This document shows positions 1 through 47,756 of a stretch of 64,000 nt of DNA, in pieces. The notes under the pieces are model-generated. The model did no database searches. It saw only the letters and a program-made list of their open reading frames with translations, and was not told the origin of the DNA. The translations under genes were made by a program, and so were the position numbers. The DNA is from Takakia lepidozioides (lineage: Eukaryota > Plantae > Bryophyta): NCBI GenBank assembly GCA_030704615.1, contig CM060734.1, positions 40,238,001 to 40,302,000 on the forward strand, written 5' to 3'. Every line of letters begins with the position of its first letter. Position 1 is the stretch's first letter.

Positions 1-979
1 TTATATCCACACTGCTTGGGATAGTGGCAGTGGACATGACTAGAGGCAGCTAACAAGACATGGGAGGCCAAGCTCATAGGAGTCAATACACGAGATCCCA
101 GGCTCAAGTTCACAGGTTGCAAGACGACGACTAACGATGGGGCAACTCTTGCACCCGGCCTCTTGATCTATCGAGTTTGAGTGTAGTAGGGACAGTGGTG
201 GAGGACTTAGTGAGGCTATGGTAACTATCACATCTTGTGGCTACCTGAACTTAGAGGGACCTAAGCACCAGCTAGGGGGGCGATTGTGTGGACTAGTGAC
301 TGCCATAGTGGGCAGCATAGTGGCAGCCTAGTGACTGACTAGTTGTAGCCTAGTGGTTGGACTAGTGGCTGGACTAGTGGTGGACTAGTGATATACTAGT
401 GTGTGGTGTGCACATGTGTTGTGTGGTTTTGGACAGCGATGTAGTTGTGTAGCGATATGTATGCGCACGACAGCTGTCAAGTTATTTTATCACCAGTGTG
501 AAACTAGCTAGAAAATAGCTAGCTTTTACATATTGACATTTGGGATTGGCCTAAGTGTCAATCCAGGGGTCAAGGCAGATTTAGGCCCTGGAGTGGTTAT
601 CTTCACGGCAAGCGTGGGAGGCTCATCTTTCTTGAGTTGAGCCTCACCGCGCCTAGCTATGGCGCCGTAGTGTGGATTCCCCATGGCATGGGGTGCACTT
701 GGCTTGACTTGTATTTGAGTGATGAGGTTATATATGCATGAGTTTATGCTTCAGCTTTGTGAGCTCGCATGAGCTTGTGCTTGTATTCTTCCTCTTTATC
801 ATTGTGTGGACTAGTGACTGCCATAGTGGGCAGCATAGTGGCAGCCTAGTGACTGACTAGTTGTAGCCTAGTGGTTGGACTAGTGGTTGGACTAGTGGTA
901 TACTAGTGTGTGGTGTGCATATGTGTTGTGTGGTTTTGGACGGCGATGTTGTTGTGTAGCGATATGTATGCGCACGACA
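1..979 (+). mobile_element. 3' end of DNMT-carrying Ty3/gypsy-like retroelement (copy 1): PHD tail, PPT, B1-gc-A2-B2 terminal structure
   Basis: 1-472 aligns with ~54635-55096 of the complete copy; 475-801 repeats the complete copy's left end (47414-47740); 803-979 repeats 285-472. Followed by CTTG (980-983), the reverse complement of the CAAG flanking the left end at 22927. Confidence 0.9.
285..801 (+). repeat. Full LTR unit (B 285-472 + GC + A 475-801), TG...CA
   Basis: Starts TGTGTGG immediately after the purine tract AGGGGGGCGA; ends TTTATCA, the point followed by the putative PBS in the complete copy; internal palindrome GACAGCTGTC at 469-478. Confidence 0.75.
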
Positions 980-3790
980 CTTGATTGTTCTACATTAGGT
1001 TTGACAAGACCAATTGTCTCATCATATTCATACTCCGTTTCTTCATGTTCCTTTGAACATTCAGAGGTAGTATCTATGGGTATCTTGGGGGATTGAGTAG
1101 CGGTAGGAGTTATATCTCCCCCTTCAGCACGAACCAATGATTTTTCATCAAAGATGATATCACGGCTTAAAAACATCTTTTTGGTTTCTTTATCATAGAC
1201 TTTATAAGCTGTTTACCCTTCTTGTTCTCTATATCCAATTAGTATGCATGGAAAACTTTTGTAATCCCACTTCTTTCTCAATTCATCCGGGACATGAATA
1301 TGAGCTGGACACCCAAAAACCCTAAGATTGCTTAAATCGGGTTTCTACCATGCCACACCTCAAATGGGGTAGCATTTGATACTGAGGATGTGAGAGACCG
1401 ATTTTGGAGATAACAGGCAGTAGCCACTGCCTCTGCCCAAAAAGTCTTTGGCAGTTTTGCTAACTTGAGCATACACCGTACACTTTTAACTAGGGTTCTT
1501 TTTTCTTTCTGAAACCCCATTTTGTTGTGGAGTATAGGCAGTAATGAATTGATGCACAATCCCATTGTGTTCACAGAATTGATTAAACTCATTCGATGCA
1601 TATTCACCACCGCCGTCTGATCGAAAAACTTTGATGTTCTTTCCTGTTTGTTTTTCAGCATATGTTTTATAGATCTTGAACTTATCAAACACTTCATTCT
1701 TATGTTTTAGAAAGTAAATTACTGTGAAGCGTGATTTGTCATCTATAAATGTAGCAAAATACCTTGCTTGAGTTTGTATGGGACCGCATATGTATGAATG
1801 AATAATTTCGAGCATATCAATTGCACGAGTTCCTCCACCTTGTGGAAATGCTTGGCGATGCTGCTTCCCTGCCATACAACTCTGGCATATAGACAATTCT
1901 CTTAGTTGTCCACTTAAACCGATAACCATTTCTTTACTTTGCATGTCTTTTATGGTTTTCAAATTTAAGTGACCCAATCTTTGATGCCATAGTCGAGCCT
2001 GATCTTCTTCTTTTGTTAGTACGGATAGACCACACTCTGATGCAGGAACACCAACACCAACTGGGTATAGTGCACGCTGCAATGAACAAGTGATGGCAGT
2101 CGGATTTCCTGCCCTTCTTATGGTACACTTATCTAGTGTAAACTCGAAACTTGTTCCAGCTTGAGTCGATTTACCAACGGACAACAAATTCTTTTTCAGC
2201 CCTGGTACATAAAACACGTCTTGTACTTCGGTTCTCAATCCTGATGTATTACTGACTGTTACCATGCCCTGTCCTACAGCTTGTTGAGTGCTATCATCTC
2301 CCAGACATATTGGTATGGGAGAATCAAAAAGTTTATAGGAACTGAACCACTCTCTGTAAGGAGACATATGCTCGGACGCACCAGAGTCCAGATACCATGT
2401 ATCTTTAGAAATGGTGCCAACAGACAAATAAGCAGTAAACAATTGAATACCAATTGAATCACTAGAATTTGCCGTATTTGCTTGGGACTTAAATATCCCG
2501 TTGGCTCTATCTGCTGCTTTAATTCTGCATTCAACAACGATGTGCCTCTTCTTACGACAATAGAAACAAGTTCATTTCTTTCTTTTGGAGTCATTTCGAA
2601 CATCAAAGGAGTTTCCACTTCCGTCTTGATTTCTCTTGTTGGATTTTTGACCGAATCCATTTTGACTCTGAAAGTTGCATTTGTTCCACCTTTTGTCTTT
2701 ATTGCCTGGATGGCTTGTGTAAAATGTTGAAGATGACGCGTTCCTTTTTCTCGAGGAACTATTATTCATGGCTTCTTCCTGTTGTAGTCTTCCACATAAC
2801 GTTGGATAAGATAGTTCAGGGTTGTTGCCCACGGTTGTTACAAACGACCGCCATGAAAGAGGCAAACTGGATAGGAGTTGTATTACAGCCTCATCATCTA
2901 AGATCTCCAAACCGGCTGCAACCATGTGGTTTAACATGCCTTGGAATGATTCCAAGAATGCTGTAACAGGTTCTCCTTCCTTCATTTCCATTCCCATGAA
3001 TTTCTTCTTAAGCATTAATTGCGTGGTTCTATCAGTATGTTCATAGAGCCTCGTGAAGTATTCCCAAACTTCACTGGCCGTATCAAGATTTCTGACCATC
3101 GCTAACTGACTATCTCTGCAGTTCAGAAGGATGTCACACTTGGCTCTAGTGTTCTGAAGTTGCTAGGCCTTCTGTTCGTCAGGATCATCTGACCCTGGGT
3201 CTTGATCAACACCTTTTACTACATTTAGTAAATCATTTCTTAGCAACAGAATTTCAATTTTCATTTTCCAAATTGTGAAATTTGTGCCATTTAGTTTTTC
3301 AATCATTATGGAACGATGCTAAGAAGGTACCGATGCCATGGTAGACTCTGATTGTTAGATCAGATTAGTACCACGGACCAGCAGTGCTTATGGTTGATGG
3401 TGTGCACTGATCGTTGGATCAAGCTAGTACCACAACCAAGTAGAACTGCTTACCCTTCTATTTTGATATCTTTTAATCCTCAATCATATTGATGAAGGAC
3501 TCGGAAAGATAAGAGAATGAACACATTCCACATGAGAATATTGTATCTATGTTTTCTTTGAATCTACTAGAGAATGAGCCCATCATCTTTCTTATTAGAA
3601 AGAGAATGCTCATCTCTATCTTTTCTTCTAATCTAGCTCCGATACCATGTAACAAATTACACAATATCTACTCTCATACATCATTGCATGTAATTAGAGA
3701 GAGTAATTAGAGAGAGTGAAGAAAAACATGGATCTAGATATTCTTCTGTAATTACACTTCTTCTATGTACGAAGACAAAGAATAGCTACA
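980..3790 (-). mobile_element. Ty1/copia retrotransposon, 5' half (LTR, PBS, gag, protease, integrase), degenerate
   Basis: Gag-like ORF 2572-3099; WYLDSGASEHM protease, LWHQRLGH/CQSC and RSDGGGEY...TPQQNGVSER integrase motifs (1486-2442); FWAEAV; SRDIIFDE. PBS TGGTATCGGAGC at 3636-3647; putative short LTR 3648-3790. Stops and frameshifts present. Confidence 0.93.
3636..3647 (-). promoter_or_regulatory. Copia primer-binding site (initiator tRNA-Met type)
   Basis: TGGTATCGGAGC directly after a CA LTR end; one mismatch to the canonical TGGTATCAGAGC. Confidence 0.85.
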
Positions 3791-5140
3791 AGTGTTCAAA
3801 GTGGGGAGGATGAAGGGGTTCTGTAACTGATAGATTCCAGGAGAGAGACACATGCATAGGACAGGGAATTCCTCTGGATTTACAGGTCAAAATGTGCACC
3901 ATAAGCAGATGTGGTTAGCATGCCCAAATTTGTCCTTACCGTCTGTGTAGGCAATTCGAAAGTTGGAAGGGAAAAAGCCTTCTCTTGGAGACAGCAGGTG
4001 CCTCTAGTGGAGCAGATTTTATTTTCTGTTGGCAGGATCTAATATTTGATTTCACTTGACGAAGGTATGGCTACGGGAGAGAGTGTTGAAAGTAGCAATC
4101 CTCAATTGTGGGAGCGGGGAGGCTTTCACTCGCATGAGGCGCTTGATAAATGTAACCCAAGGGGTTACGGAAGCTCAGGCAGTCCAATTTTGGTATGGGA
4201 TATTGGACAAGGAGTTGAGGAGAAGGGTGCGGGATGCAACTCTCCTACAAGCGGCCCAACCCACCTTAACAAATGTGTTTTTGCTGGCAGAGCAGATAGA
4301 GCTCAACATGGTGGAGGAATGAGTGGTCATGGTGGGATTTGCTAAGGAGACACCACGGGGTAGTGGTGCTCCTAGCCAACCACTACCTCAATGTGCTCAA
4401 GGCAACAAGGGGGCTCAGATGAAGCTCAGGGAAGGGCAGAGAGGACCTCAGATGCATGGGTCTCTCCCTTCATTTGCAGGCCAACAACGGGCGGATGTGG
4501 TGTGTTGGACATGTGGAGGACCCCACGTCAAGAAGCAACGACGCAATGGCGTGAGCGTTGCACGTGAGCGCGCGAGCGTACGCTCACGCCAGCTGACGTG
4601 GCGTGAGCCTGCACACATGCTGACGTGGCGTGAGCGTCATGTCAGCATGCTGATGTGGCGGTAAATGATGACGTGGCACTGTCCGTCAACTGCCACGTCA
4701 GCATTAACATGCGCCGCCTATAACCGTGGATGGTCCTATGACCGTGGAATTAATGCAGGGAATCTTGCCTAAATAGAATCAAGACGAGCGTTGAGGCCTA
4801 CAATTGCAGCATCCAACATTGTGCAATTTCACTTTTACAATTACGAAGACGACAAAATATCCTCACAAAGTGTGCGCCATAAAGGCTGCCACGAGAAGAC
4901 TTCCTCCCTCCTCAAATAACAATGAGAGTTATGATCATCTTCAAAAGATGATTGTAGTGCATAGCGACAGCAAGACATGTAGACTTCGAACGGTGCAATG
5001 ACAAATGTGCACTACCTAAAAGTTGTCACTCAGACCTCACTCCGTATAGTTGGAGGCCATATCATTGCACAGCCGACGAATTGATGTGAATTACACATTT
5101 CAAATCATGGTCATCCACATACCACATTACATAGTTCATG

Positions 5141-8100
5141 CTACCCATGTGTTGTATCCCGCTGCAAAAGAGTATCGACCTCGTTGAAACTCATAGTGGC
5201 CTGGTGAATGAAGTTGTCACGTTTGGGATCGCAAACCATCCTCCTCAAAAATATGAAATACAAATGTTTGCAGGGTATGAATTTACCTCTCTTGCCCAAA
5301 CTGGTTGATAGCATATTCACAAAATCAGGACATGTGCAATTGGGGAAATTGGAAACCGTGATGTCGTAGGTCCTGTCATGAACAGCAGATGTGGAAGTGA
5401 TGATTGTGAATACCCGACCATATCCTGGATCGGGTACTTCCGTGGTGCTTCCGACACGAGCTTGGAGCATTCTTGCGGACTCCACTTTGCCAAAGTGTTC
5501 AGCGGTTGGAGGGAAACGCCGAACGAGCTTTCCATCTCGTTTGGTTGGCCACAAGTCAGGATTTGCCGGGGGGACCCGGGAGGACGCAGGAGTAGTAGCA
5601 CATGCATGGAGTTGGGGTTGTCTCGCAAGGGAAAAACCTGCCTCCTCCAGCATTTCAATCTCCTGAAAGCTGAGATGTGTTCCCACCTTCACGGGCCAAA
5701 CGGTTGGAGGAGATGGCTTCATCACTACGGAAGGACGCACAGTTCCATGCACACATCTGGCACAATCATCTGCGCAGAACCAGAACTTGTGGTTCTTGGC
5801 TTCTGGTTGACCGTATGGACGCATCAAGCCCGTGAAAGTCGGAGCAGGAGTTCGGGCACCACCTCTGGATATAGATGAAGTGCACTTCTCGAAATTAGTT
5901 GCCCTGATCGCTGTACATTTCACACGAGACCCGACACTTGTGCGTTCTATGTGCCAAACGTGGTCGGGGCATGCGGACTCAAGCACATCAAGGGGGTTGT
6001 TTCTCTCCTGCACCATTTCAGTGGCACGGTTTGATGCTGGAGCTTGCCGTCGTGTTGGAGGTTCCTCCACAATGGAGGTTCCGGACACGGAGCTGTCATG
6101 CAGGGGAACACGAGGCTTCGAGAAGTTATCACGGTCTGCCCTGTGGGAATCTGAATCCGAACCAGGTGGAGTGTTCAATTTCCTCTTCGAATCTCTCCTC
6201 CCCTTCAAGATGTGGAACTCTAGAAACAAGTGGCGTTCCCTGGGCATACATGCTCACCGCCCGTGCTATCTTGATTGGATCCCCAGATCTGTTTGCAGCA
6301 CGCAACATCAACTCCGATTTGTCCGGACCCTTGCCACCAACCCCACCTCGTAAGAAATCACGGTATCGGGTTTGTTGTTGCAAGGCACGTATCAAATCAT
6401 CTGTTGTTGCCACATACAAATCCCGACCTCGTTTCCCAGACTGCTGCAACCATGCATTGTGCACAGTTTCTGCCAAATTGCAAGATGGCATGTCTGCCAT
6501 TTCCTCAATGGACATGTTCTGCAAAGAGGATAACCACACTTCAGAATAGTGCACAGGAAACAACATAAAGAAAGCAATGAGTCAAAAATATGGAAAGCAA
6601 ATGTATGAATAAAGCATGAAATAGAAGCCTCGTACCATTGTCATGGCTGCTCCCCACTGTCTATACCGGAAGTGCCAAAACGCCAGCCAATCTTCCAATG
6701 CTCTCATACTCTCAAGTGATGCAGCTCCAGAAGAGAACCACCAGGCACGAATTGTCTGGAACAAAGTGTCCGCCTCCTTCATTGTTCTAGCATCTTTGTA
6801 CTCTTTGCACAATTTACGGTGCTGAGTCTGCATCTCTGGTTTGATGTCCGACTTTGTATGTTTTTCCAGAGATTGTGTCCAATGGAATAGACATGTACGC
6901 TCTCTTCCTGGCATAGGCACTTTTGGGTCGCCCGATCCGAAGACAATACGAATAGCATTGAAATTTGCTTGAGCACTATCCGCCATGAAACCTGCGAAAT
7001 TTGGAGATGGCAGCCCATGGCAGCCCATGACACGTATCAGGGAATTCCACATGAGCTTCTGGGATTCCGTATCCTCGGATTGCATGTCACAAACTGCAAT
7101 TGTCATAACTCGTTGGTACACTGGATCGTAGACATGACAAGCCATTGTCGTCCAATCCTTCACTCGTTTCACATGATCAAACATAAGAAAACAGTTCTGC
7201 AAGTCCCCAGTCTTCTGCATCCGCTTCACGAGGCTAACCCCACTGCCCTCCCCAACAGTCGACATTTTGAAAAGAAAAACTTTGATGGCACCTTGACCTG
7301 GGAATACATTGTCCTGGATGTAATCGTACTTGCTCAGTCGTTTCAATTCCAAAATATTGTCTATGTAGCCTCTGATCCCAGAGCCCATTCTCAATGCATT
7401 GATCTGATGCCGAATGTTAGGTGAACTTAAAGTGGAGAAATGATCCATGACCAGGTCCAATGCTGCACCGTCAAGTTTAGTCCCCACAGAATCTCCTTCA
7501 CTCAAAATATGGCTTTCCAAGAAGGACTTGCTTGCGCCAAGAGCAATTGCAGATGTTGTTGCGGATGGGTTTCTCCCGAACTCCTGTTTGATCAACCTCG
7601 ATACTGTCTCAACACTCTCCCTGTAATCCCCCTTCGAGACAGGATGGTTATGGAATCCAAAATGCACACAAGCTCTCGTCATTGTATTCAAACGGTGGAC
7701 AACATAGTACATTCTTGCTCCGCAGAGCGCCAAGCAGGATGGCACAAGTTTGCAGAATTTGCAGACGAAAGTGTTTGCCGGTGGAGGGGCAGTCCCAGGC
7801 TGAAATGGATTCTCCGCCAGACCCTCCCATTCGCTTTGATTATGAACTCCAGACTGAAGAAAGTGTCTGCAATTCAAATTATCACACCTAAGGTGTCCAT
7901 TGCAAACTGTCCTCCTGAAAACAAGCTTGTCATCATTCTGAATATTGGATGTTTTTGTTCTGCACCACGGGTGCCCGTCGTGTTTCTTGTCCATTCCATG
8001 CATCATGATTGTTACACCTCCAACTCGCGGAGGAGGAGGCAGCTCGAATAGGATATCGCCATCAAAAGTCTCCGGCAAGAACTTCACAGGCACCTGCTTC

Positions 8101-8648
8101 AAAGATTCCCAATCAATTCCCCGCAACTCACTTTTGAATCCAGCCATTCCTCCCATCGCCCGCAATTTTGGAATGACACTACAAATCTCTTCTTCATCAG
8201 CTTCTGCAACCACAGTAGGAAGGACTGGATTTGGAATTTCACTTATGTCATCATCGGAAGAATCCGAAAGCTCAACGATTGGAGTGGAGGAAGTCTGTTC
8301 TTTTTTCACCACCACCTCCCTCTTGTCTTCAACGACCGAAGCAGCAGTCCCGGGCGTCACATATGACCCAAGGGACTTTCGCCGAGGCTCTCCAAGTACT
8401 CTGTATCGACCAGGACGCACTCTCCACTGGCTGATATGAGCCGTCTCATCACGGTTTTGGAAAGAATATTTCACCAACTTCCCTTTCAGATCGTAAACCT
8501 CTTTCTCCAAAAAGATGGAGCCATTCTGCAGCTGAAAACGGGTAGCCAAGACATGTTCCAGAACAATTGCAAATCCATTGTCAAGGACTTCCTGGGAGAA
8601 CGGCACTGGTTTGTCGTCTGAGAAGAACTCCGCTTCAGAGGAAGCCAT
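5141..8648 (-). CDS. MULE transposase: GCM/WRKY-like Cys/His domain, DDE core, C-terminal SWIM finger; apparent frameshift near 6190
   Basis: LMFDHVKR / FMADSAQA / CLFHW / NLAETVHN catalytic pattern; SWIM CTCPDF...PCKH; phase-0 GT-AG intron 6519-6635; frame change between ORFs 6129-6566 and 5141-6247. Confidence 0.88.
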
Positions 8649-9503
8649 CTTCCTTCCTCGAGTATGTTTGTACCTTGCTATCGCAGATCTAGTGTAAATC
8701 GGTTTACTGCTGTCTCCAGAACACAGTTGAAGAATGAGCAGAGCATATGGCGGAGGAAGCTCAGATAACGACTGTGCATATTCTGTTATTCATTCCAGAT
8801 ATGCAGCCGTCCATTTTAATTACTTTTCTTGTGGGCCCAGTGGTCAGAGAATCCATAGGGGCAGTGTCGGCAACTGTTAAACCGTTAATCAGAACCTCAT
8901 CAATAAACCCAATAACAAAGCCGACTTCCTGGAAGCATGCCACAGGATCCGAGAATGGGATTGCAGATTAAGTAAATGTATCTATATACTACTACCAATG
9001 ATCATGCGCACCTGGAAAGTTCCAAATGTGCAACGAATGTGGGGTTTGGATAACAAGGATGACCGTGTATGATATTCCAAAATTTGTCATCAAACTCTCG
9101 TTCATTTATATTTATTTGTTTAAGACTGCGCATCAATTTCTGGGATTCGCTGTTCTTTTTAAATATTGAACCAGTTATAATTTAGAACACGCCGTTTTGT
9201 TTTGGGCGGCACACGTCAGACATCCATAACTGAATACGAACAGCTGTACACCAATTGCTGGCATGTGCACTAATAACGAAACGACTATGTGTAACGGTCA
9301 CGCGGGAGGGAATCCGATGCTTCTAGAGACACGCAAGAACACAGGCAATCCCGCAAGAAATCGGGAGTCACTGCGTTTTTCTACTTTTCGCGCTTAGAGG
9401 GAGAGTGGTAGTCAAGCTGGAGAGGGTTCCTTCTAGAATACGAAAGAGAAGAAAGTCTCTTTATTTTACTTCCCTTAGAGAGAGACGCAGAGCAAGAGAG
9501 AAA

Positions 9504-12500
9504 ATGACGAGGCGTCGTTTGTTGGAGAACACAGGGCCAAGGCAGCAGGTGAACGCGGAGACTGATTCACAAGAGCAGACGGAGACTGAGGCAGCGGCTG
9601 CGACACAGCCGGCGATAAGAGTGCGCCAGCCTGTGGAGGCAGAGATGAATCGCAGGGACACTGAAGAAGGTGGAAGCACGCGGAACGCCGAACCTGAAGA
9701 AGGTCAAGAAACCCTTGCGCAGACAGAAACTCCAGCAGATGTGAGAGGGAAGAGGAAAGCTGCAGAAGGGGATCAAAGTTCAAAACCTAAGAAGGTGCCA
9801 GTAAGTTTTATCATATAGTCTATGTGATTGCCTTTCAAGGAGTCCTTCCTCTTCCATTCTTTAGCAGGAACTACTGAATCGCGAGCGTCGTTAACGCCAT
9901 TCGATTCTGCTCATGAGATTTATGTACCTATGTGTTTGAAGAGAGAGTCTGCACTTACTATTCTCCCTAAACTACACTGAATGTCGTTGCCGCCAATCAG
10001 TTGCACATATATGTCATTACACAACACCGATCCGGCAGGTTGTTATCTTTTGTGATTGTCGTTAACGCCGTTCGCTATCGCTCTCACTTTTGTTTTGAAT
10101 ACGGCAGTCTCGGCTTTGCATGTGTAGATTGTGCTGAATTCTTTCACACCATTCATGGTGAGTTTCCTTGATACAGAGTGATTGTCGTTACCGCCATTCA
10201 CTATTTGCAAATCACTTAGTCAGAACTGAATGGCATCGTGCAGAAAACTGTGAGGTCGAAGCCTACAGGATCAGAGGGGAAAGGATCTGGAGATGGGGAC
10301 GAGTCCGCAAAAAGCTCAGAGAATACAGATGAAGCAGATGAATCCGAAGTGCACTACCTTGACAAGGTGAAAGAACTCATGTCATTCCAGAAGGTAAACT
10401 CTCAGGAGGTTATAAGGGACATGCTCGTATCTGGAGGGCGTCTGGACATACCTCTGTGCCGGATGATATCAATGCCTGTTGTGCGTCCACCTCTTTCCCA
10501 TGACATAACAAAATTGGAGAGTGATTTTGTGCATGGATATAGACTTGGTGCACAAGTTTTTTATGTGTCACTGACGGATATAAATGGGAAAAGCACATTA
10601 GTTTCTCCAGAGATCAGTGATAACTGGGATGAGTGCTGGAAAGATGCCAATGAGGAGTTCGAGCTGGGCCTCATGATGGGAAAGAACACCCAGCAATTTT
10701 GCAACCACATGTTCTACGTCTGGGACGGCAACCACCGATTGCTGGCATGGATGGGATACATTCAGAAACACCATTCGAAAGACAAAGACAAGCATGTTGC
10801 TGTGGAGGCAATGGTTTTGGATCCAGGAAACGACATCGCTAGGCTTCTTACAGCTATGCACGACGTGAACAAGTAAGTCATCCAGGAGATTTGATTCCCT
10901 CTGTAGTGTCTTGTTGATCCTCAAAAAACAGTGTTAAGGAATGCAATGTTTTCAATGTTTTTGCAGATCGACAGAGAAATCGCATGTGACAACAAGCTTG
11001 GTTCACACACTATTCCGAATTCAGAGGATTGGTCTGATGAAGCTGGATGATTTTCGGACAGTACTACCACCCAATATCATCAAGAAGTGCGAAACAGGAA
11101 GAGCTGCAGGCACTTGGTATTCTTTGACACGAGAGGCGTTTCTGGAGTACATGTATGCGGTAAGCCCGAGTCTGTAATCTGTTTACTTTTCGAATACATG
11201 TTTAGAGTCCCTTCGGAGCTAATCACTACTTGAATGAATGCAGCAAGAACTGGCAGAGGCAGCTGAGAAGGGAAAATCCGAATATTACCGCACTACACCA
11301 GAGGAACTAAGGACATCAAAGGGTGTGGAAGCTGCAATAAAGAAGGAGTTTGAGATGCGAAGAACCAAATTGATGTCAGCCTTCGGAAAGCAGCTTAGAA
11401 TAGTAGATCCTGGACTTGGTCCTGAGTTCCTTCAGCAGATCAAAACACACTATGACAAGCATGTGCATCCGGAGATGCAGCAGGAGAAATTGCACCGGCT
11501 GGCCATATCGATGGTCGACCCACAAACAAAAATAAGGTGGCTGGAGATATGGAACTCAGATCAAACAGTAAAGGACTTGAATCAGTTCCCAAAGAGCACC
11601 ATACAGCCTGGCACAAAGGTGGAAGGAATCAGTGATTTGGTGTTTGATAACTGGCTCCACAAGGCTACATTTTGGAGTCAGGTGTGTATTCGAACATGCT
11701 GTTTCTTCTCTTCAAGTATGTGATGTGTTTCTTTTTTGCAATTCTGACAAATATACTATTTGCAGCTCGAAAAGCGCGCCGTCATTGTGCTGGATCAGAC
11801 TTTGAAGGACCTGAACATTGCGATTGTTTCCCCTCCCCAAATGTCATTGGAGGCATACATAAGGAAGTGGAGAGGTCTCACCTGGAGATACTGTTTTTTC
11901 CGGGAGTTCTCCAAAGATGGTAACATTTTACGGTCCAACGACTTTGACAGTCAGGTTGGAGGAGAGTGGGCCATGATGCGAGTTGTGTACAGGTGAAATG
12001 TCATACTTGAAACTCTACTGTTTTTTTGGGAAAAATTGTGGCTTCATATGGATTGCAATCTTAGATCCAGATTGAATGTCGTTGACGACATTCACTTCTT
12101 TGTCTGAGTCATTCTTAAGCGAGTATATGAATTCACCTGGTTAGGATCTAAGGGTGCAATTATATTGTCCCTGATTAGAATTGATAATGTCCTTGAATGG
12201 CGTTGACGACATTCACATACGGAGTTGTTGTGTGGTCCTCAAGGTTATTTAAATTTTTGTAATGTCCATAGAGGTTACAATGAGGGTTGATCACTTCATT
12301 TTGCTGAATGTCAATGCAGACATTCAGTTGTTCTGCATTGTTTTTTCCTCTTGCGATGAATATGGAGGCTTCATAAGCTCTGTTTTAAGAAATCCAAAGT
12401 GAATGTCGTTGACGACATTCACAGCTGTGTCTGTATTATTAAAAAACGACAAATTCAATTTTCATGGATTGGGGAGCTAAGTAATTGGTTTCTTTTTTGT

Positions 12501-15141
12501 ATTTTTGTGAATGGCGTTGACGCCATTCACATACAGTGATGTTGTGAGGTCCTCAGTGATAGGTTCGTTATGAATGTGCATTGAGTTTTCCTGGATGGTT
12601 CCTTACTCAATTTTTTTATTTCCATCCTGTGATTTTGCTTCATTTCAGTAATAATTTGGCTTCATTCTTGAATGTCGTTGACGACATTCACTTCTATGTC
12701 TGTGTCATTTCTAATCGCTTATTTGCATTCACCTGGATTAGGATGTATTTACAGTGTCATGGAATGGAATGTTCTGAATGGCGTTGACGACATTCATATC
12801 TGGAGCAGTAGTGTGGTCCTGAAAGGTCCTTGGAGCAGTTGTCAGAGCCATTTCAATCCATGTTTTATTCTTTCTGTTCTACTTGCATCTTACTCACTGA
12901 GCGCTTTTGTGGGTTGGGATTCATCTCCTTTTTTCAGGTACACGAAATATGTGCTTATGGAAGGAAATCACCTGAGCGGAATTCCCGACTATCTTGACAT
13001 GTGGTCGGACCCTGCAAACGATCCAACCATGTATACTGCAGGGATATTGAAGGACTGGAGTCCTTCTCACTTCAGAGACTGTGGGTGGTACCTTGACTGC
13101 CCACCTGAGCACACGACCTTTCAAGAACAGCATATGAAATACTTGAACAATAACGCTGAGATGCTGGCGCCTTTGACTGACGAAGAGTATCAACGAAACA
13201 TAGCAACCTTGGCTGCCAAGGAGCCTGATGCTCAGGGAACGCCGCAGAAGGGAAAGAAGGCGGGCCGCAAACCAAAAGACAAGGCTGTTGATGTCATAGC
13301 CATCTCACCAGCAAAGCCAAAGGACAAAGACAAGTCCAAAGAGAAGGAAAAGGACAAGGGGAAGGAGAATGAAAAGGAGATGGAGAGTGGGCAGGACTTT
13401 AGTGCTGGAAGATATACCCGCACTCTTCAGTGCGTGTTCGATGCCAAGCCACACCCTTCCCGTTCTGATTCAGCAGGAGAGATGAAAATTGTTAATGAGG
13501 GTTGGCTTTCGATGATGCAGAGTCGAAAGAGAGGATACACTGGGGTGCCATCCCCTACCTGGGACAATATAATCTCATTCCTCAATCTGGTGAGAATTCC
13601 ATTTTCTTTCCTTTTTCTCTGAATGTTTCGTTGGCAGTATTTCAGTCTCGTTCTTTGAAAACATTCTTGCCATCGTTCTTATAAAAAACATGTCTGTTGC
13701 AGGTGAGCACAGGTCCCACCTTCGTGTGCGGTGTGCAGAAAACTTATGCGGCCGACATTGTCATTCTCGACATCCCGGATGGCCAGGCTGTGCCAGAAGT
13801 TCTTCCAAAGGGCAAGACGCCAGGGTGGAACAAATTCGAGGACAACTACTGGAGTTGGGTATTCGGGTTCTGTAACAATTTCCTCTCTGATGCAGGGACA
13901 CTTCTGCTTTTTCAGTCATGTGACAATGATAGTCGTCGGGCATTGGCATCATACCTCAAGTCTTCAGGGTTTGAAGTTTTGCGCACATGGAATTGTGTGA
14001 ACAGCCTCTACCTTGTGAAAGGGGGTTTCCCTGGTCAGCTGGTATGCCGTCTGCCTTCTGCTTATGCTTTGATCATGAGTTTCAATTTTCTCTGCAGCTC
14101 CACTCTAGTAGAATGTTTTATGATCGACACCGATCATCAACGATTCATGGTTTTTTGGTGTCAGAGTTCTGAATAGCCGATGTACACACTTCCACTTTAG
14201 ATTGTGTTTACCACACTAACCTGCTATCTTTGGCAGACGAGGATGTTCGAGGCGATCTGCCTGCGGAGGATTCGCACATCAAAGACACCATCCTCCATCC
14301 GCAGCTTTGAGATTTCTGACCAGGGTTGTTTCGTCAACCCCCCCTATGAGCCCCATGTCGATGACATTTTGTACAACTTCATGCAGTCCAGTCAGACTCT
14401 GAAGAGACCAGATGGCACTCCCTGGAGAGGTGCAAAGGAAAAGTCACCAGCATTCATGCAAATACTGCTGGAGTCATGCAGCCACCGCTCTGCACGGGTG
14501 GTCGATCTTTCTGTGTCCACAGGTTCGTTTTCTCCCTTCCGAATTGGTTTCCTTTCAACAGTTTCATCTGCTTAAATCCCCTCCTCCAAACTGTTTATGT
14601 TCTCCTGTCTGGTGCAGGAGCAACTTACCACGCATGCAAGGCAGGCGGAAGAAGCCTTTTTGGTATGGAGGGTGATTCTGACCTCTACAACACAGTGCTC
14701 CTCCCCCTTTTGTCTGGCTCCACTTCAGGCACACAGACTGATCGGATTCATATTCGAAATGATGACGATCCCGAAGATAAGCAGGTCGACAACGACTTTT
14801 CATGTGAGTAAGTGCTAAACCCTCTTTGGGAGTCATACTCAATTTCTCGATAACATCAAAGTTACAGTAATAACTTTTTCAGGCTGTCTTTCAGGAAAGC
14901 CAGCGGTGGATCTTCAGGAGATACAGTCATTTCTGGCGAGTCTGTTTTCGACAGCCCCCTTTCCAATTTTCTGCTCCCTGTTTATGCCGAAGCAATGGCA
15001 CTTCACGCGTCCGAGTCCCTATCCCCTGACTTTTTAGTGGCCAGCCGTAGGTGTATCCAGCGTGGATCCGGTGTTCTAAAATACTTAGACTTAGATGCAG
15101 AGGAAGAGGGGATACATTGTACTGACTCTGAGTCAGACTGA
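9504..15141 (+). CDS. MULE accessory gene, ~1165 aa, 10 exons: ParB/Srx-like domain plus C-terminal beta-class (N6A/N4C) DNA methyltransferase-like domain
   Basis: Exons 9504-9800, 10244-10872, 10967-11159, 11244-11681, 11766-11992, 12938-13589, 13703-14041, 14237-14522, 14618-14807, 14895-15141, all GT-AG and phase-compatible (last exon least certain). Motifs: FYVWDGNHRLLAW; ADIVILDIPDG; FLSDAGTLLLF; EKSPAFMQILLESCS...VVDLSVSTGATYHACKAGGRSLFGME. Confidence 0.78.
9882..10200. repeat. Degenerate array of 22-bp palindromes in intron 1 of the accessory gene
   Basis: Copies starting at 9882, 9978, 10053, 10135 (weak) and 10179, related to TGAATGTCGTnnACGACATTCA. Confidence 0.8.
12073..12796. repeat. 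Array of seven 22-bp palindromes in intron 5 of the accessory gene
   Basis: TGAATG(T/G)CGTTGACG(A/C)CATTCA at 12073, 12194, 12305 (variant), 12400, 12508, 12669, 12775; set in a diverged ~270-330-bp higher-order repeat. Confidence 0.92.
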
Positions 15142-15260
15142 ACTGTATTCTTTTAATATTCATTTTCATATTATCTGGAAAACGTTGAATCCCCTTACTC
15201 TACCGTAGTTGTTCCTTTAGAACAAATAATAATCACAGAATCAACTTTCGTTTAAATTGC

Positions 15261-15630
15261 TATATGTATGAATCCATCTCACAAACCTTCCTGACTCTTC
15301 TCATATCCATTGTGCATTCATCTACACTGTATTCATGCGTGCTCCATTCATGAAAGCTTCCTTTGTACAACATCCATTGTACATTCATCCTCTGTACTCT
15401 TTAATCCACCCCACAAACCTTCCACACTCATTTCATATACTTTGTGCATTCGTCAAAAGATTTGGTCATGCATCTTCCTGTCATGAATTTTTGTCATTGC
15501 TCAACATCCATTATACATTCATCCATTTTACTCTTATCCATCCGTCATTCATCCATCTACATAGATTTTTCAAACTCATCCATCTGTTTATCATCCAACT
15601 GTACATTCATCCATCATTTATTCAATGCCT
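15261..15630. repeat. Subterminal low-complexity (TAC)ATTCATCC repeats of the MULE
   Basis: Multiple CATTCATCC/CATCCAT units just inside the right TIR. Confidence 0.65.
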
Positions 15631-17376
15631 TTTATTATGTCGTCCAGCTTGTTTCCGCGGTAAAGGGTGCCAATCCGCGGGAATACACTCCACTTCTTTC
15701 TGGGTGCGTGGTGACTCGGCCTCCACGTGTGATGACGTGGACTGAGCCCCGTGACGTGGCATTTGCGCAAGGTGACGTGGCGTGAGCGCAGTCGCGCTCA
15801 CGCGCTCACGCGCTCACGTGACCAGGCTCACGCCGAGGCATCCCTGCGTCAAGAAGGATTGTCCAGAGGGAGGCAAAGAGCCGGCACATGCACAGCCTGC
15901 ACAGTTGCAGTGTGGGCATTGTGGCAAGCACGGGCATGGAGAGGCCCAGTGTTATGGTTTGCATCCCGAGTTGCGCCCAGGCCAGTTCCAAGGGAACAAT
16001 GGTGGTCGGGGGCGAGGGGGAGCAGCCCAAAGAGGACGAGGTGGCCAGGCACGGGGTGTAGGCCAAGGGCAAGCTCAACAAGGCCAAAGACGCGGAGGTC
16101 AGGGTGTTGACCAAGGCATGGCCAACCGGCTTTAGCAGCTAGAGCAGAGGCTTGCTGCCATGGCTACAGCTCAGGTGGTACCGGCTCCAAGGCCGGATGG
16201 TCCACCTCCTGCTCCTAAGGGAGGAGATATGGGAGGTATGGAATTCATGTGCGGGGCAGCACTACCACTAGTGCATGTAGAGTCTGCTGCAGCCGTGACT
16301 CGAGGAGCAGCACGAGTTCCTGAGCCACGAGGTGCAAAGGTGGAGTTGGATCCACAGCGTGGGGAGGCAAGCCGTCAGGCTAGGCTTCCTCAGTCATTCA
16401 CATTGGCGGAGACAGTGTCGACGCCATCCATGGCACCTAGTTCTCGCCCGACTGTTACCGAGGCGGAGGTTACTATGCCATTAGGGAAAGCTACACGGGT
16501 AGCACCACTATCTAGTGTTGCCAAGGCTACGGCAGCTAGTGTGCTGCTGGAGGCGGCCACAGCTGTGTGCCAGGCTCCATTGTTCTCGGCTACCATGATT
16601 GTGACGTCGGGGGTAAGACCAGCTGAGGTGTTCAGGCTGGTAGCTACACTCTGTGAGAGTGGGGAGGTTACTTCATCTTCTATGGAGATAGTGGGAGGTG
16701 TAGTGCCGGAGGGATCCTTGGATTTGAGGGTCAAGACTGCCACGGCGGCGCCATGGCAAGCTGCAGCTGCCAGGTTGATGGAGCTGCCAGCTAGACCAGC
16801 CATTGAGCGCGCCATGGTGACACCTGGAGTTGTCATGTTAGACAACCAGGATGGCATTTTCTGTTTGAGTGGACCAGCACGCAAGAGGTACCGGCCACTG
16901 CGGGTCTTGTTGGACTCGGGCTCAGCCATTGATGCTGGGCGGAGCTACTATTGTAGGCTTGGGCCTCACGGAGGTGGATATGGAGCCTTGTCCTTTCTAG
17001 ATACAGACGTCTCTGGGAGGATCGGAGCAGGCTCGGGGCATGACACGGCGTGAGTTGGCTATCAGACTACAGCCGGATCATCCTACAGATGGCTCAGTGA
17101 TGAGAGCCAAGGCCATTGTGACAGACGCGGTCTCGTACGATGTCCTTGTTGGTGGGATGGTGTTGTACCCCATGGGCTTCACCCTGGATTTTTGGGAGGA
17201 GTCAGCTTCCTATAGGCCTAGATGGCAGTCAGGGGAGGGCCGGCATGTGTAGCTCCCTGTGACGTTCATAGGAGGAGTTGCGGTTGCCCAGCGAGGCAAG
17301 ATGCCAACACTGGTAGCATTCACAGTTGCAGTAAGTGGGCCTGGAGAGTTGCTAGAGGGCAACGCTCATTCAGAGG

Positions 17377-18666
17377 ATGTGTCCTCCGGGAGAGCAGAAT
17401 GACATGTATGGTATGGCGGAGTTTCCTGCCATGGTTGCTCACACTCCATTGTGGGGTTCGAGCAAGGATTTGCAGCGGGTTGCTGATTGTCATGTGCAAC
17501 AAGCCTGGGTAGAGGCTTTTGTACCGTCAGGAGAGGAGGACAGTGTGGGGATTGCACCAGGACCACCTCAATTGTCACCATTGGACACCACACCGATTGT
17601 GTGGCCGTGTCCGGATGAATGCATTTGCCTTCTGGACTTGTTTGGCGGGATCAGCACCGGATCGGTTGTTGTTCTACAGGCAGGTGTACGAGTACGACAT
17701 TACTTGTATGTGGAGAAGGATGAGACTACACGACGCGTCTCACTCTGTCATATTGCTCAGTTGGTGCAGCAGTACCCTGAGTTGTTGCCGGTTTCTGCGG
17801 TTCATGGATATCAGCAGGCCTTGCCAACAGACATTTCGTTGCTGGGGGCGCAGGATTTGGAGCAGGTTGGCTCCATTGATCTGGTAGTGGCAGGTTGGCC
17901 CTGCCAAGGGCATTCATCAGCCGGGCATGGCAATGGATTGCGAGACTCGAGGTCGGGTCTGTTTTGGGAGATGGTGCGGGTTTTGCGCCACTTGCAACTT
18001 CATCAAGCTGTATCTCCAGCATACATATTGGAGAATGTGCCACTGATGGGCGATTCTCGGGGCAAGGTGATGGCCAGTGTGCATCAAGTCCGGTTGTGGC
18101 TTGGGTCAGCAGTGTTGCTGGATACAGCTACAGTGGGGTCACGGGCTCATCATCCATGGCTATGGTGGACTAACTTGATGCCACCCGCACTGCTCAAGCG
18201 TGCATTTGATGGGGTGCAGCGGCTAGCACACCTCATAGTGGATAGCATTTTGGACACAGGGAGGCAGTCTCAGCGTGTGAGACACGATGATCGTTTGCCT
18301 TTGGCAGTGGTCAACATGGTGGGTCAACCACGAGCAGCATTACCTACACTGCTCAACTTCCCAGGATCGCATGCTTTCCGGGATAGTGGACCTAGCCTCC
18401 TGTGGGATGCTCAGTTGCAGCAGTTAGTGGAACCTAATGCTGAAGAGCGTGAGCAGGCGATGGGTTTTACCACTGGTACCACGGCGGTGTCGTCTCTTTC
18501 TGAGGCATCACGTCGTCAGGTGTTGGGGCAAGCAATGGATCTCAATTGCTTGACCTGGATTATCAGCTTGGCTATGGCTGAGCAACGCAGAGTAGGGAGT
18601 ACACTTCCCTCGATGGTCTCTCTGCCTACCGAGACGGTACAGGCAGTGAGTAGGGGCGGCATGTAA
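17377..18666 (+). CDS. DNMT3-like C5 cytosine methyltransferase domain of the retroelement polyprotein (copy 2)
   Basis: Motifs I LDLFGG, II VEKD, IV AGWPCQGHS, V SGLFWEMVR, VI ILENV, VIII (AHHPWLWWTNL here, AHRPRLWWTNL in copy 4), IX EQAMGF, X RRQVLGQA; uninterrupted ORF. Confidence 0.92.
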   Translation: MCPPGEQNDMYGMAEFPAMVAHTPLWGSSKDLQRVADCHVQQAWVEAFVPSGEEDSVGIAPGPPQLSPLDTTPIVWPCPDECICLLDLFGGISTGSVVVLQAGVRVRHYLYVEKDETTRRVSLCHIAQLVQQYPELLPVSAVHGYQQALPTDISLLGAQDLEQVGSIDLVVAGWPCQGHSSAGHGNGLRDSRSGLFWEMVRVLRHLQLHQAVSPAYILENVPLMGDSRGKVMASVHQVRLWLGSAVLLDTATVGSRAHHPWLWWTNLMPPALLKRAFDGVQRLAHLIVDSILDTGRQSQRVRHDDRLPLAVVNMVGQPRAALPTLLNFPGSHAFRDSGPSLLWDAQLQQLVEPNAEEREQAMGFTTGTTAVSSLSEASRRQVLGQAMDLNCLTWIISLAMAEQRRVGSTLPSMVSLPTETVQAVSRGGM

Positions 18667-18846
18667 GGACCACGGGGTGCAGGCATCCATGGCACACGTA
18701 GGAGGTGCTCGAGGTTCAAAGGGAGTTGGCAGCCAAGGTGGCGTGATGGATGAGGTTGGGGATTTTTCTCAGGTTGAGGAAGTCCTCGAGGATGAGATGA
18801 TGAGGCAAGATGAGGCCTTGTCATTGACTGAGCAGGTAGGGCCCTG

Positions 18847-19188
18847 GATGTCACTGCAGGGCGTGTTATTCTGAGGGTTCGAGAGCTGTTGCCCTCAGGA
18901 GTCCTGATCTTGGAGGGTCGGGATGGCATGACTTGGAAAGACCATGTGCGTAATTGTGCGCCATGTCACCTTCCCAATGTCGATGGCAGAGTTGACCCAA
19001 ACTTGGCAGTGGTACCTGCAGGTTTGAGGTGCATGCTTTGTGGGTCTGCTAAAGGGGCAGCCACCATGCTGATGTGTGATCGATGCTCAAGGGGTTGGCA
19101 TATGGGATGCTTGACACCACCTCTTGAGAAGGTTCCTGACGGAGATTGGTTGTGTCCACACTGCTTGGGATGGTGGCAGTGGACATGA
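18847..19188 (+). CDS. Integrase C-terminal-like segment plus PHD finger (copy 2)
   Basis: ILRVRELLPSGVLILEG...DHVRNCAPC followed by CMLC...MLMCDRCSRGWHMGCLTPPL...WLCPHC (C4HC3). Confidence 0.85.
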   Translation, partial: DVTAGRVILRVRELLPSGVLILEGRDGMTWKDHVRNCAPCHLPNVDGRVDPNLAVVPAGLRCMLCGSAKGAATMLMCDRCSRGWHMGCLTPPLEKVPDGDWLCPHCLGWWQWT

Positions 19189-19442
19189 CTGGAGGCAGCT
19201 AACAAGACATGGGAGGTCAAGCTCATAGGAGTCAATACATGAGATCCCAAGCTCAAGTTCATAGGTTGCAAGATGGGAACTAACGATGGGGCAACTCCTG
19301 CACCACTTAAAGCATATTCGCAAAGATTTGTGAAGATTAACATGCAATACACCAAATCAATGTTTCACAAAGGTAACAATATTTGTCAACAATTGAGTTT
19401 CACTTATTTCTTGCATCATTATCTCCCTTGTTTGAGCACTTA

Positions 19443-20542
19443 CAGGTAAAGCTGTTCACTTATTGTCTCAGGAGTCTCGTCCCTGCTGAGTGGCATTGTA
19501 CCGTTTCCCACTTGAAGCCACCACCTTGCCAAGCAGGCACTCCAGAACCTGACCAACAGTCTGACGGCTAGGCAGTGCATGTGGATTGATGATGATATCG
19601 GGCACAATCCCCTACTGAGAGAAATGAAGTCACGATTGCCGTCGAATGTGTTACAAGCCCCTAAGTCCAGGTCGGACCAAACGCGTTGCACAATTTGTTT
19701 GGGGGACATTGCAGATGGGCAGTCTATTATATGACTGCCAATTTGCCTCTTTGCTAAAGATCCCTCCCACCACACCCTTCTGACCGTGCATACTGGAGAA
19801 TTTGTCACCAGCTTGTGGGGCACGAGCAAAACGAAGGCGCACCCTCGCAATGCAGTGCCCATCCTCCTCCCTGGTTAGCATGACCTGGTCTACATGGCCC
19901 TTTTGATGGGTTTTCAAGCGTAAGCTGGAGTCCATAAGCCTTGGGTTCCCCTCCACAGTGGTTAACTAACCAATCACTATATCCCCCTTGGTCAGTGTAG
20001 CTCCAATATAAGGAAACCCATCTTCATGTACTTACAATTGTAAAAAGCTTGCTCATCTGATATACTTGGCTTGCCAAAGTGCTCCTCCACATTGAGCCTC
20101 TCCTCACCTCGATGCACTTTAAAGTGTAAGGACCTGGGTCAGTAATGGTTGAATTAACAATGCCGACCACTGCAAATGCCTATCGGCCTAGTTTAAATGT
20201 AGGTGAAACATGAGAGTACACAGTGCATGCAACAAGATGCTTCCCTGGCAATCTGTCAACCGATCTAAGCACAGAACTTGTGATTAACTCAACCTATCCA
20301 CAAACCTGAATAGGCCTCGATCAATGGAGGCCTGGTTCATAACAATGGAGTCCTCCTGGTTGTAGGCATAGCATTGTATTGCTACAATCGCAACTTGACC
20401 ATTTGTAAGCTCTGGCTTTTGCAGTAACGTTGCAGCACGTGTGGTGACAAGAGGCTTCTGTGGATAAAATAGCTCATGAGCTGAGGAGTCTGATCGCGAC
20501 CACATATTGGTTGAGTAGAAGCTGGCCTGTTTGCAATGCTTA
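19443..20542 (-). pseudogene. NRPD2: RNA polymerase IV/V second-largest subunit, C-terminal-half fragment
   Basis: [22 protein letters not shown]...YNQEDS...[46 protein letters not shown] and KHCxQ match NRPD2/E2 rather than RPB2. Introns retained; frameshifts, an insertion and truncation on both sides. Confidence 0.85.
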
Positions 20543-22926: not shown

Positions 22927-24420
22927 CAAGGCTGGCACAACAAGGTTCAGCACCTCAAGGCCAGAACCTAGAAGTTCAGTCAACTGAAGGTGGTTATCCT
23001 CCTACGTCAAGTACAGAGGAGAGTATTGGTATGTTGTTACCACATGATCCATTTAGACATGAGACAACAAGGTCCACGATAGAGAAAGAGAAAGCGAATC
23101 AACATTACAAGTTGATCAACAAAATTTACGTAGGTCTACTCGGACAAGGACACCGTCCTTAAAATTAAAAGAGTCTCTCAGCAACGCTTATGCTTTTTTT
23201 ACCCAGACTGATGAGCCTTCCACAATAGCAGAGGCTTTGTCTGGACCTAATGCAGATAAGTGGCAAGATGCTCTTGATTCTGAGTACGACTCTCTTATAA
23301 AGAATAGAACGTGGACTTTGGTAGATCCTCCAGTAAACAGATCTATTGTCAGCTGTAAGTGGGATAAGAATGACCTCTTTACGAACAATCTTCTCTTTAG
23401 CTGCTAACCTAGATCTGGAAATACACCAGATGGATGTTAAGACCGCGTTCTTAAATGGTTATCTAAAGGAGGAGATTTATATGAAACAGCCTGAAAGCTA
23501 TGTCAAAGCGGGAAAAGAAACTAAGGTTTTTATGCTACTAACAACACTTTATGGCCTCAAACAATCCCCAAGGGCATGGTATGAGCGAATAGATTCTTAT
23601 CTATTGAAATCTGGTTTTGCTAAAACTCCAGCAGATTCAAATGTCTATGTTAAGCGCCATCAAGCTTTTTTGTATTGTTAGGGTTGTATGTTGATGTGTG
23701 CATCATTGTTGGAAACGATTTGAAGTTTCTGAAAGCAACAAAATCGGAGTTGTCAAGTGAGTTTGAGATAACAGATAATGGTCCTATTGAGTATTGTCTC
23801 GGCATACAAGTATCTAGAGATAGAAGAAAAAGAATAATTCATTTATCTCAAGAAAAATATATACGAGATACACTTAAGAAATTCAATATGGAATTATATA
23901 AAGCTATCTCTACACCAATGGAACCAGGAAGTAAGCTTTCCAAGGAAATGACTCCTGAAAGTAAATCTGAGCAAGAGGAGATGGTAGATATTCCTTATTC
24001 AAGTGTTGTGGGCAACCTGATGTACATTATGGTGTGTACACGACCCGATCTTGCTTTCCCTGTAAGTCAAGTTTCACAATTTATGGCAAATCCTAGAAAA
24101 CAACATTGGCTTGCTATAAAGCGGCTTTTCAAGTATCTTCAAGCCACTATAACTTTTGGACTTAGATACGGGATTCAAGTTGAGACTTCACCAGCAAACA
24201 CTATTCAAGGATGGTGTGACGCTGATTGGGTAGCAGATGTAGACAATTGGCGTTCTGTCACAGGTTATATATTTTGCATGAATGGAGGAGCGACATCGTG
24301 GCAAAGCAAGAAACAAGCTACTATAACTCTTTCGAGTACCGAGGCAGAGTATATGGCTGCTGCACATGCAATATAGCTTAGGCAGTTAATTAGTGGACTT
24401 GGATTCCCAAGCTCACCCAT
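22927..24420 (+). mobile_element. Ty1/copia retrotransposon, 3' half (RT and start of RNaseH), degenerate
   Basis: LRRSTR, EPSTIAEAL...W, QMDVKTAFLNG, LYGLKQSPRAW, LYVDV, CDADW, SSTEAEY; internal deletion near 23363; no 3' LTR seen. Confidence 0.92.
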
Positions 24421-33300: not shown

Positions 33301-33375
33301 TCAAACATCTATTGTGTGGCTGGCAGGTGGGATGATGTGGAGAACGTGAGGAAAGTAATGGAGGGTAGAAGGTGA
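30351..33375 (+). CDS. PLS-class pentatricopeptide repeat protein with E domain (organellar RNA-editing factor type)
   Basis: Long P-L-S array (VVSWNAMI / PNKVTFISIL / GTALVSMY), E domain VWGALLGACRIHG. Start inferred at 30351 with intron 30383-30490; main ORF 30475-33375; stops before the KEPxCSW box, no DYW. Confidence 0.92.
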
Positions 33376-45896: not shown

Positions 45897-45988
45897 CGCA
45901 GCCTCTTGGCCGCTAGAGCTGGATGACGATGACCTCCTATCGCCGGTGGCTGACTACCTTCCTCCCTTCGAGACCAGTGCCCTGATAG

Positions 45989-47739: not shown

Positions 47740-47756
47740 ACTCGAGAAAGATGAGC
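47740..47756 (+). promoter_or_regulatory. Putative self-priming primer-binding site
   Basis: ACTCGAGAAAGATGAGC, at the end of A, is the exact reverse complement of 47560-47576 inside A. Confidence 0.65.

Follow-up and report, generated by a model that had tools for sequence, protein, structure and literature searches.

Insertion ends of a DNA methyltransferase-bearing Ty3/gypsy retrotransposon in Takakia lepidozioides point to integration at a palindrome inside its long terminal repeat

How does a long terminal repeat (LTR) retrotransposon come to begin and end in the middle of its own LTR? The question is raised by a 64,000-nucleotide stretch of the genome of the bryophyte Takakia lepidozioides (contig CM060734.1 of GenBank assembly GCA_030704615.1, positions 40,238,001 to 40,302,000 of the forward strand; hereafter, the window), which holds four copies or fragments, numbered 1 to 4, of a gypsy-type element bearing a DNA methyltransferase (DNMT) gene. 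LTR retrotransposons and retroviruses are generally taken to integrate via the ends of linear complementary DNA (cDNA). In the present family, every insertion end that we observed lies at a palindrome inside the LTR, and a DDE integrase therefore appears to act on abutted ends. The permuted-end arrangement is real, family-wide and old. Comparison of window copies with their relatives makes it probable that a self-priming Ty3/gypsy element integrates at this LTR-internal palindrome, with its cDNA ends joined to each other.

Window copies start and end inside the LTR

The functional LTR of the element was delimited as B-GC-A because a polypurine tract (PPT) precedes B and a self-priming primer-binding site (PBS) follows A. 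Both landmarks agree with the preliminary description of the locus, which had placed the reverse-transcribed LTR at 285-801, and its account of copy 1 (269-983) as a purine run, AT, B1, GC, A, T, B2 and CTTG was matched base for base (Table 1). The left end of the corresponding cDNA presumably starts at position 283 (AT-TGTG...). The two B segments of copy 1 differ by 4 substitutions and one 11-nt indel. The palindrome formed across the B/A joint, GACAGCTGTC, is present only once in the window and constitutes a putative attachment (att) site.

The ends of the inserted copies map to this joint. Copy 4 had been described as A-internal-B with the target-site duplication (TSD) CATT, and this structure was found, with CATT abutting A at 47414 and following B after 55096. 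On the minus strand, the start of copy 3 at 22926 reads CTTG|TGTCAAG. Short variable TSDs (4 bp) and TG..CA ends are hence present both in copy 4 and in copies 3 and 1 taken together. The earlier proposal that the latter form a single A-internal-B-GC-A-B insertion (A..BAB) is supported by their flanks, which harbor consecutive halves of one copia pol gene: the integrase core and SH3 domain beside copy 1, and the linker and start of the reverse transcriptase (RT) beside copy 3. The frame continuing the left copia half presents 77 open codons, versus 14 and 19 in the other two frames. We infer that copies 3 and 1 are one insertion (TSD CTTG), afterwards divided by one inversion with its breakpoint in gag at approximately 20543.

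Related elements share the permuted ends

Relatives comprised 80 loci from a scan of metagenome contigs and 5 from genome contigs, of which 64 strong matches were examined; L064-L080, L081-L110 and L112-L115 were excluded from counts on account of their weak DNMT matches (E 2e-12 or worse). Viral contigs yielded weak methylase matches (30 loci), nothing with an integrase-PHD alignment, and 3 pattern matches. The family represented by locus L030 shows 63-69% DNMT identity to the window, and by score is nearest to a protein of Sphagnum fallax. In this family, A or B was matched in 23 of the 64 loci, corresponding to 18 insertions once duplicates are merged (L006 and L011 on the basis of identical B1 sequence, not flanks). 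Left out of the end counts were L017, whose left end is lost, L013, which is cut before the PPT, and L002, whose right end leaves the contig inside A.

The preliminary description had predicted that copies would start at A, end at B, carry variable 4-bp TSDs and include no canonical elements, and the relatives bear this out. All 12 intact left ends in the L030 family join flanking DNA directly to A (TGTCA in 11, TGACA in 1), with B in front in none, and all 11 closed right ends join B to flanking DNA (CA in 10, TA in 1). A 4-bp TSD was identified in 5 of 5 copies with both ends: L030 (A..BAB, AAGG), L047 (A..BAB, CATA), L016 (A..B, TACA) and the broken forms L035 (CACA) and L024 (CTTA/CCTA, one mismatch). 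The 11 right ends divide into 4 BAB, 4 in which the PPT is followed by B, and 3 in which broken cDNA or other element DNA is fused to B.

None of the 14 left ends and none of the 13 right ends scored across the window and the L030 family belongs to a canonical BA..BA copy with two complete direct LTRs. A derivation of the observed structures from canonical elements through nested insertion, recombination or misassembly is, as a result, barely credible. The window region is indeed rearranged, with an inversion and fragments, and tandem LTR structures are common in plants (PMC11899658), but the end counts span two families and different assemblies, and TSDs flank the permuted ends.

The same arrangement was also sought in contigs from four public sequencing runs, thousands of which match window positions 180-815, the segment used for alignment. 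X1-X3 represent a single sample, possibly of the window's own organism, and X5 is a plant metagenome; results on loose ends rest on 24 of the 389 rows. Among these, at least 36 contigs of X1 (agreement 0.36) and at least 31 of X3 (agreement 0.38) exit from the element after base 472 into unlike sequences. The A end continues into the PBS in at least 4 contigs of X2 and at least 2 of X5, and precedes B in at least 11 contigs of X1, with joints that differ by few bases; A-end-to-B joints are also present in X3. No left-flank exit at 475 appears among the 24 of 389 rows, and a single X5 contig carries 31 loose letters before 475. Because many contigs exit after 472 into differing sequences, the BAB arrangement is neither unique nor an assembly artefact. 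The X1 and X3 exits and the A/B joints thus contradict both of these possibilities, which the preliminary description had raised against its own reading.

The family encodes a DDE integrase and is predicted to prime on its own RNA

The gag-protease-DNMT region of copy 4 shares 51% identity with the Marchantia protein P0001 across P0001 residues 1-1231, and among 82 matches the closest named proteins belong to Marchantia (70%), Calypogeia (68%) and Sphagnum. P0001, P0002 and P0032, which are annotated DNA methyltransferases or hypothetical genes of Marchantia or Sphagnum, resemble the first open reading frame (ORF1) of this retrotransposon. Copy 4 has lost RT, RNase H and the integrase core, upstream of its integrase tail, and copy 2 has the same deletion; since it is common to both, these copies form a non-autonomous deletion subfamily.

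The enzymes missing from these copies are encoded by relatives. L030, itself an A..BAB copy, encodes RT, RNase H, the integrase core (rve) and a PHD finger, and both L030 and the intact relative L111 present a Ty3-type RT-RNase H followed by integrase (RT-RH-IN order). L111 contains a D-D-34-E triad (D692, D752, E787), an H2C2 finger, a GPY/F-like motif and YIDD, and its best Protein Data Bank matches are to Ty3 Gag-Pol (E 7e-100) and to foamy virus integrase (E 3e-19). At the integrase C-terminus there is no chromodomain match, and a PHD finger is found there instead. These results uphold the claim of a gypsy-type DDE element. The element is gypsy by its proteins, but not a canonical gypsy, because its domains are Ty3-type and yet no copy is bounded by two complete LTRs. 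The L111 contig and protein P0074 come from bacterial genome bins but are gypsy sequences of eukaryote type, and contamination is the probable reason. In L111, one stop codon (3489-3492) separates the in-phase gag-protease-DNMT and RT-integrase frames, where read-through is possible.

No tyrosine recombinase was found in 38 of the 40 L030 ORFs of at least 70 aa (two alternate-frame ORFs omitted) or in the 16 L111 ORFs of at least 100 aa (3 main and 13 minor), so that an autonomous partner of this kind, which the preliminary description had named as fatal to its reading, did not emerge. It could still be supposed that a tyrosine recombinase supplied in trans integrates a circle at the B/A joint, in the manner of PAT or Ngaro, given that Ngaro, PAT-like and VIPER elements share the A1..B1-A2-B2 layout (PMC6681497). 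This is very improbable in view of the ORF content of L030 and L111, the full DDE triad of the intact relative, the variable 4-mer TSDs, the loss of GC and the TG..CA ends, the combination of TG..CA ends and a short TSD being the product of a retroviral-type integrase (PMC11054761). On ORF content, end counts, TSDs and run contigs, we discard three readings: integration by a tyrosine recombinase, a unique tandem insertion and misassembly.

A tRNA primer site after A was ruled out, as the PBS is instead an exact 17-nt complement to the element's own A (Table 1); the chance of a 16-nt self-complement is approximately 1e-7. The self-priming match spans 17 nt in L030 and L039 and 12-16 nt in L111, L026 and L052. 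Among 12 decayed left ends, exact pairing extends over 17 nt in 2, 10-11 nt in 5 (two of the 10-nt matches falling elsewhere within A) and 7 nt or less in 5. Transcription is predicted to start inside A, at about its position 147. In L035, L039, L045, L111 and L026 the primer is preceded, at a distance of some 25-30 nt, by TATA-like words; none is clear in the window.

The palindrome is retained in distant relatives

In more distant loci, with approximately 41-50% DNMT identity to the window, GACAGCTGTC is located between the PPT and the PBS, exactly in L111, L038 and L052 and with one mismatch in L026 (chance 2-6e-4 per locus), and it is kept in 4 of 5 distant relatives. In L052, TG is missing behind the PPT and CA is missing in front of the PBS, and the DNMT is placed between RNase H and integrase. 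This second architecture is also that of proteins P0043-P0074, and L052 combines it with both the palindrome and self-priming. The end structure may therefore predate the placement of the DNMT. In the retained B1/A joints of L011, L062, L026 and L047, the central GC is changed to AC, AC, GT and TC, respectively, and 3 of the 4 joints match the expectation for deamination of methylated C.

Joined cDNA ends suggest a possible route through a 2-LTR circle

The A/B joint normally reads TTTTC-AGT-TGTGG in relatives (with G>A in one of them) and TTTATC-AT-TGTGTG in the window; in either case, the PBS-side end runs directly into the bases found downstream of the PPT. BAB joints are base-precise in 4 of 4 cases in the L030 family and in the window. 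In L024 and L021, AGT-TGTGG is fused exactly to DNA that had broken within RT or at the close of the PHD frame, and in L035 it follows scrambled pieces ending in A, 9 nt of PBS and 5 filler bases. From the 3 of 11 right ends that break at one nucleotide we infer ligation to a physical cDNA end. The terminal B would derive from the left LTR of the cDNA. B1 and B2 were compared for signs that B2 is copied anew from B1 in each cycle: they show 7-10 differences within elements and 7-13 between elements, and are thus no closer within them; only L062 presents a subfamily variant common to both B copies. A..BAB needs its two cDNA ends to be joined, and the joints have the look of end-joining.

In the route that we propose, the RNA would begin in A1 and end in A2, and its 5' end would prime on the PBS, so that ordinary LTR-type reverse transcription would generate a linear (B-GC-A)-internal-(B-GC-A) molecule. 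End-joining of the two ends of this cDNA would follow, most likely ahead of integration and yielding a 2-LTR circle, and integrase would cut 3' of CA on both strands at the palindrome next to the PBS, that is, in the left LTR, with a 4-bp stagger and loss of GC. The A..BAB product would keep its promoter and R repeat together with an intact palindrome, and could transpose again. Copies of the A..B class would likely be dead ends, their B1 and B2 having merged through a 1-LTR circle, through annealing repair or by subsequent recombination. The stronger proposition, namely that integration proceeds obligately through an end-joined 2-LTR circle cut at an LTR-internal att site, by a DDE integrase, in an old DNMT-bearing Ty3/gypsy clade reaching from bryophytes to probably algal hosts, strikes us as evenly poised between acceptance and doubt.

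Several observations weigh against this route. The integrase evidence comes from relatives, the window copies keeping only the integrase C-terminal tail. The four palindrome-bearing distant loci are collapsed or truncated contigs without insertion ends, and the distant decayed insertion L058/L059 (40% DNMT identity) repeats B after 361 nt but is devoid of the palindrome even when one mismatch is allowed; a search for the left end of L058 was unsuccessful. The outer LTR ends are still TG..CA in the window, the L030 family, L111 and L026. For retroviruses, the 2-LTR-circle precursor model (Panganiban-Temin, 1984) was overturned in favor of linear DNA (PMC11054761). Lastly, the mirror product is missing: none of the 14 left ends is of the ABA..B type, whereas BAB occurs at 5 of 13 right ends (window copies included; Fisher p=0.016) or 8 of 13 when broken fusions are added (p=0.0006).

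A cut beside the PBS yields A..BAB and a cut beside the PPT yields ABA..B. Because a 2-LTR circle has two palindromes, unbiased cutting should generate ABA..B as often as A..BAB, and its absence therefore suggests that the left-LTR palindrome is preferred. ABA..B copies would be incapable of new transposition, so selection would favor such a bias. Its cause may lie in earlier completion of the left LTR duplex or in methylation by the element's DNMT, and the methyltransferase may in this manner help choose which palindrome is cut. The preliminary proposal that circular cDNA is integrated consequently stands in part: the DDE gypsy enzymes, the ends at an internal palindrome and the joined cDNA ends are in agreement with it, whereas simple cutting of a 2-LTR circle does not account for the lack of ABA..B. 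In its strict form, that proposal held that 1-LTR and 2-LTR circles are both routine substrates and that A..B copies arise directly from the 1-LTR circle. We regard this as doubtful. A..B copies with perfect TSDs do exist (copy 4 and L016), the class makes up 4 of 11 right ends in relatives, and retroviruses commonly form 1-LTR circles (PMC5314604). However, B1-B2 recombination over some 450-520 bp would lead to an identical structure and TSD, as would cutting of linear cDNA at its two inner att halves, and unbiased use of 2-LTR circles predicts the ABA..B copies that are not seen at any of the 14 left ends.

A further alternative, which we entertain only tentatively, involves no free circle. 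Integrase would cut the left-LTR palindrome of linear cDNA and insert both halves, leaving a chromosome break between the natural cDNA ends, which would become A..BAB by host end-joining or A..B by annealing of B1 and B2. This differs from the 2-LTR circle route solely in the order of steps. It would derive both classes, as well as the broken joints, from one intermediate. In LTR-type reverse transcription the left LTR becomes a stable duplex first, which could also account for the missing ABA..B. On the other hand, a double-strand break would be needed at every insertion, and the base-precise joints of the L030 family and the window fit ligation of intact ends at least equally well.

Relation to known elements

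KnitGypsy-Dnmt3 of Klebsormidium nitens is described as having DIRS-like A-coding-B-A-B repeats and gypsy domains (de Mendoza et al. 2018; PMC5890265, Fig. 4c legend). Gypsy domains, a C5 DNMT and A-coding-B-A-B repeats are all found here too. By its published description the DNMT of KnitGypsy-Dnmt3 resides in the Pol ORF, whereas here it closes the gag-protease ORF before RT. The available text of PMC5890265 mentions no att palindrome, TSD, self-priming, A..B class or mechanism, and 'target site' is absent from its main text. No named K. nitens sequence is present among the 82 protein matches. The claim of novelty made in the preliminary description must be narrowed accordingly: no published att site, TSD or mechanism was found, but the A..BAB layout of a gypsy-DNMT3 element was already in that legend. 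A preprint (10.64898/2026.05.21.726589) mentions streptophyte Gypsy-DNMT3, and its available text is without 'circular', 'target site' or 'palindrom'. The PHD-bearing Gypsy-7a_cRei, whose left LTR is without the last 8 bp of the right LTR (PMC9940879), is a possible relative. The available parts of PMC11899658 and PMC12885004 held nothing closer. No published internal att palindrome with TSDs in a gypsy element was found in a search that left most subscription journals and Repbase reports outside its reach, and the att site, TSDs, A..B class, end-joining marks and strand bias appear to be undescribed.

Self-priming is a signature of Tf1/sushi and Tcn1 elements (PMC6317226). Like the element studied here, these chromoviruses combine Ty3/gypsy RT and integrase with a PBS complementary to the 5' end of their own RNA, and they occur in non-seed plants; unlike them, the present element has a PHD finger in place of the chromodomain, a DNMT, permuted ends and a 4-bp TSD at an internal site. 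The split direct repeats of PAT-like, Ngaro and VIPER elements (PMC6681497) are arranged as here, but those elements encode a tyrosine recombinase, whereas this family has a DDE integrase and variable 4-bp TSDs. A precedent for the proposed cut comes from retroviruses, where integrase can cleave a palindrome of abutted CA/TG halves and where internal cleavage of the palindromic 2-LTR junction by tetrameric HIV-1 integrase is possible (PMC1905944). In retroviruses, however, this palindrome is the joint of the cDNA ends and its cleavage a side route, whereas here it lies inside the LTR, has a 2-nt spacer and coincides with every insertion end seen.

The element appears to depend on end-joining, and would provide a natural, testable case of the abandoned circle-precursor model as well as a possible bridge to the split repeats of PAT and Ngaro. 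If true, an obligate circle route would converge on the architecture of tyrosine-recombinase retroelements. LTR-finding pipelines that require two full LTRs inside a TSD are predicted to miss or misannotate this abundant bryophyte family, including the methyltransferase 'genes' of Marchantia and Sphagnum. Among DNA transposons, the circles of IS3 and IS911 likewise present abutted ends, separated by a short spacer, to a DDE enzyme. Those elements rebuild the junction in each cycle, whereas here the junction is copied through RNA.

Other features of the window

Table 1. Features of the element and its surroundings in the window.
Feature	Positions	Strand	Remarks
PPT-like run AGGGGGGCG	274-282	+	copy 1; same run in all relatives compared
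B1, first part of functional LTR	285-472	+	copy 1; ends CACGACA
Palindrome GACAGCTGTC, putative att site	469-478	+	10 bp, across B/A joint; central GC lost at inserted ends
GC spacer between B1 and A	473-474	+	copy 1
A2, second part of functional LTR	475-801	+	copy 1; TGTC...TTTATCA, contains copy of self-primer
A/B joint CATTG	800-804	+	putative ligation of cDNA right end to cDNA left end
T between A and B2	802	+	copy 1
B2, right end of insertion	803-979	+	copy 1
TSD CTTG	980-983	+	copy 1; partner 22927-22930 (-)
Copy 3: left-end A (partly deleted), leader, gag start	20543-22926	-	probable inverted left half of copy 1
TSD CTTG (CAAG on +)	22927-22930	-	copy 3
Left TSD CATT	47410-47413	+	copy 4
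A1, left insertion end	47414-47740	+	copy 4
Predicted RNA 5' end (self-primer)	47560-47576	+	copy 4; complementary to PBS
Self-priming PBS	47740-47756	+	copy 4; exact 17-nt complement of 47560-47576
gag (zinc knuckles), protease, C5 DNA methyltransferase (PF00145)	50468-54151	+	copy 4; interrupted by stops and frameshifts
Integrase C-terminal tail and PHD finger	54318-54659	+	copy 4
Single B, right insertion end	54920-55096	+	copy 4; A..B class
Right TSD CATT	55097-55100	+	copy 4
Copy 2, internal fragment without termini	4117-19304 (4117-4535 + 15847-19304)	+	interrupted by 11.3-kb insertion
copia pol gene halves	980-3162 (-) and 22927-24376 (+)		now in opposite orientations; separated by copy 1/3 insertion
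Insertion in copy 2	4536-15846		11.3 kb
RNA polymerase second-largest subunit gene fragment (PF00562)	19305-20542	-	decayed; between copies 2 and 3
G+C-rich tandem array in element leader	48912-49485 and 21800-22250		units of ~10 bp
PPR gene	30472-33375	+	303-bp repeats, E motif
Prolyl-tRNA synthetase	44151-45953	-	single 600-codon frame
Satellite	45987-46830		units of 42-45 bp; adjoins prolyl-tRNA synthetase frame

The leader of the element, which contains the tandem arrays, is 2.7 kb long in the window versus approximately 1.1 kb in L030. The insertion that interrupts copy 2 is flanked by a target duplication of about 10 bp (CGTCAAGAAG) and contains minus-strand ORFs, including one with a weak SWIM finger, features by which it is identified as a putative Mutator-like element.

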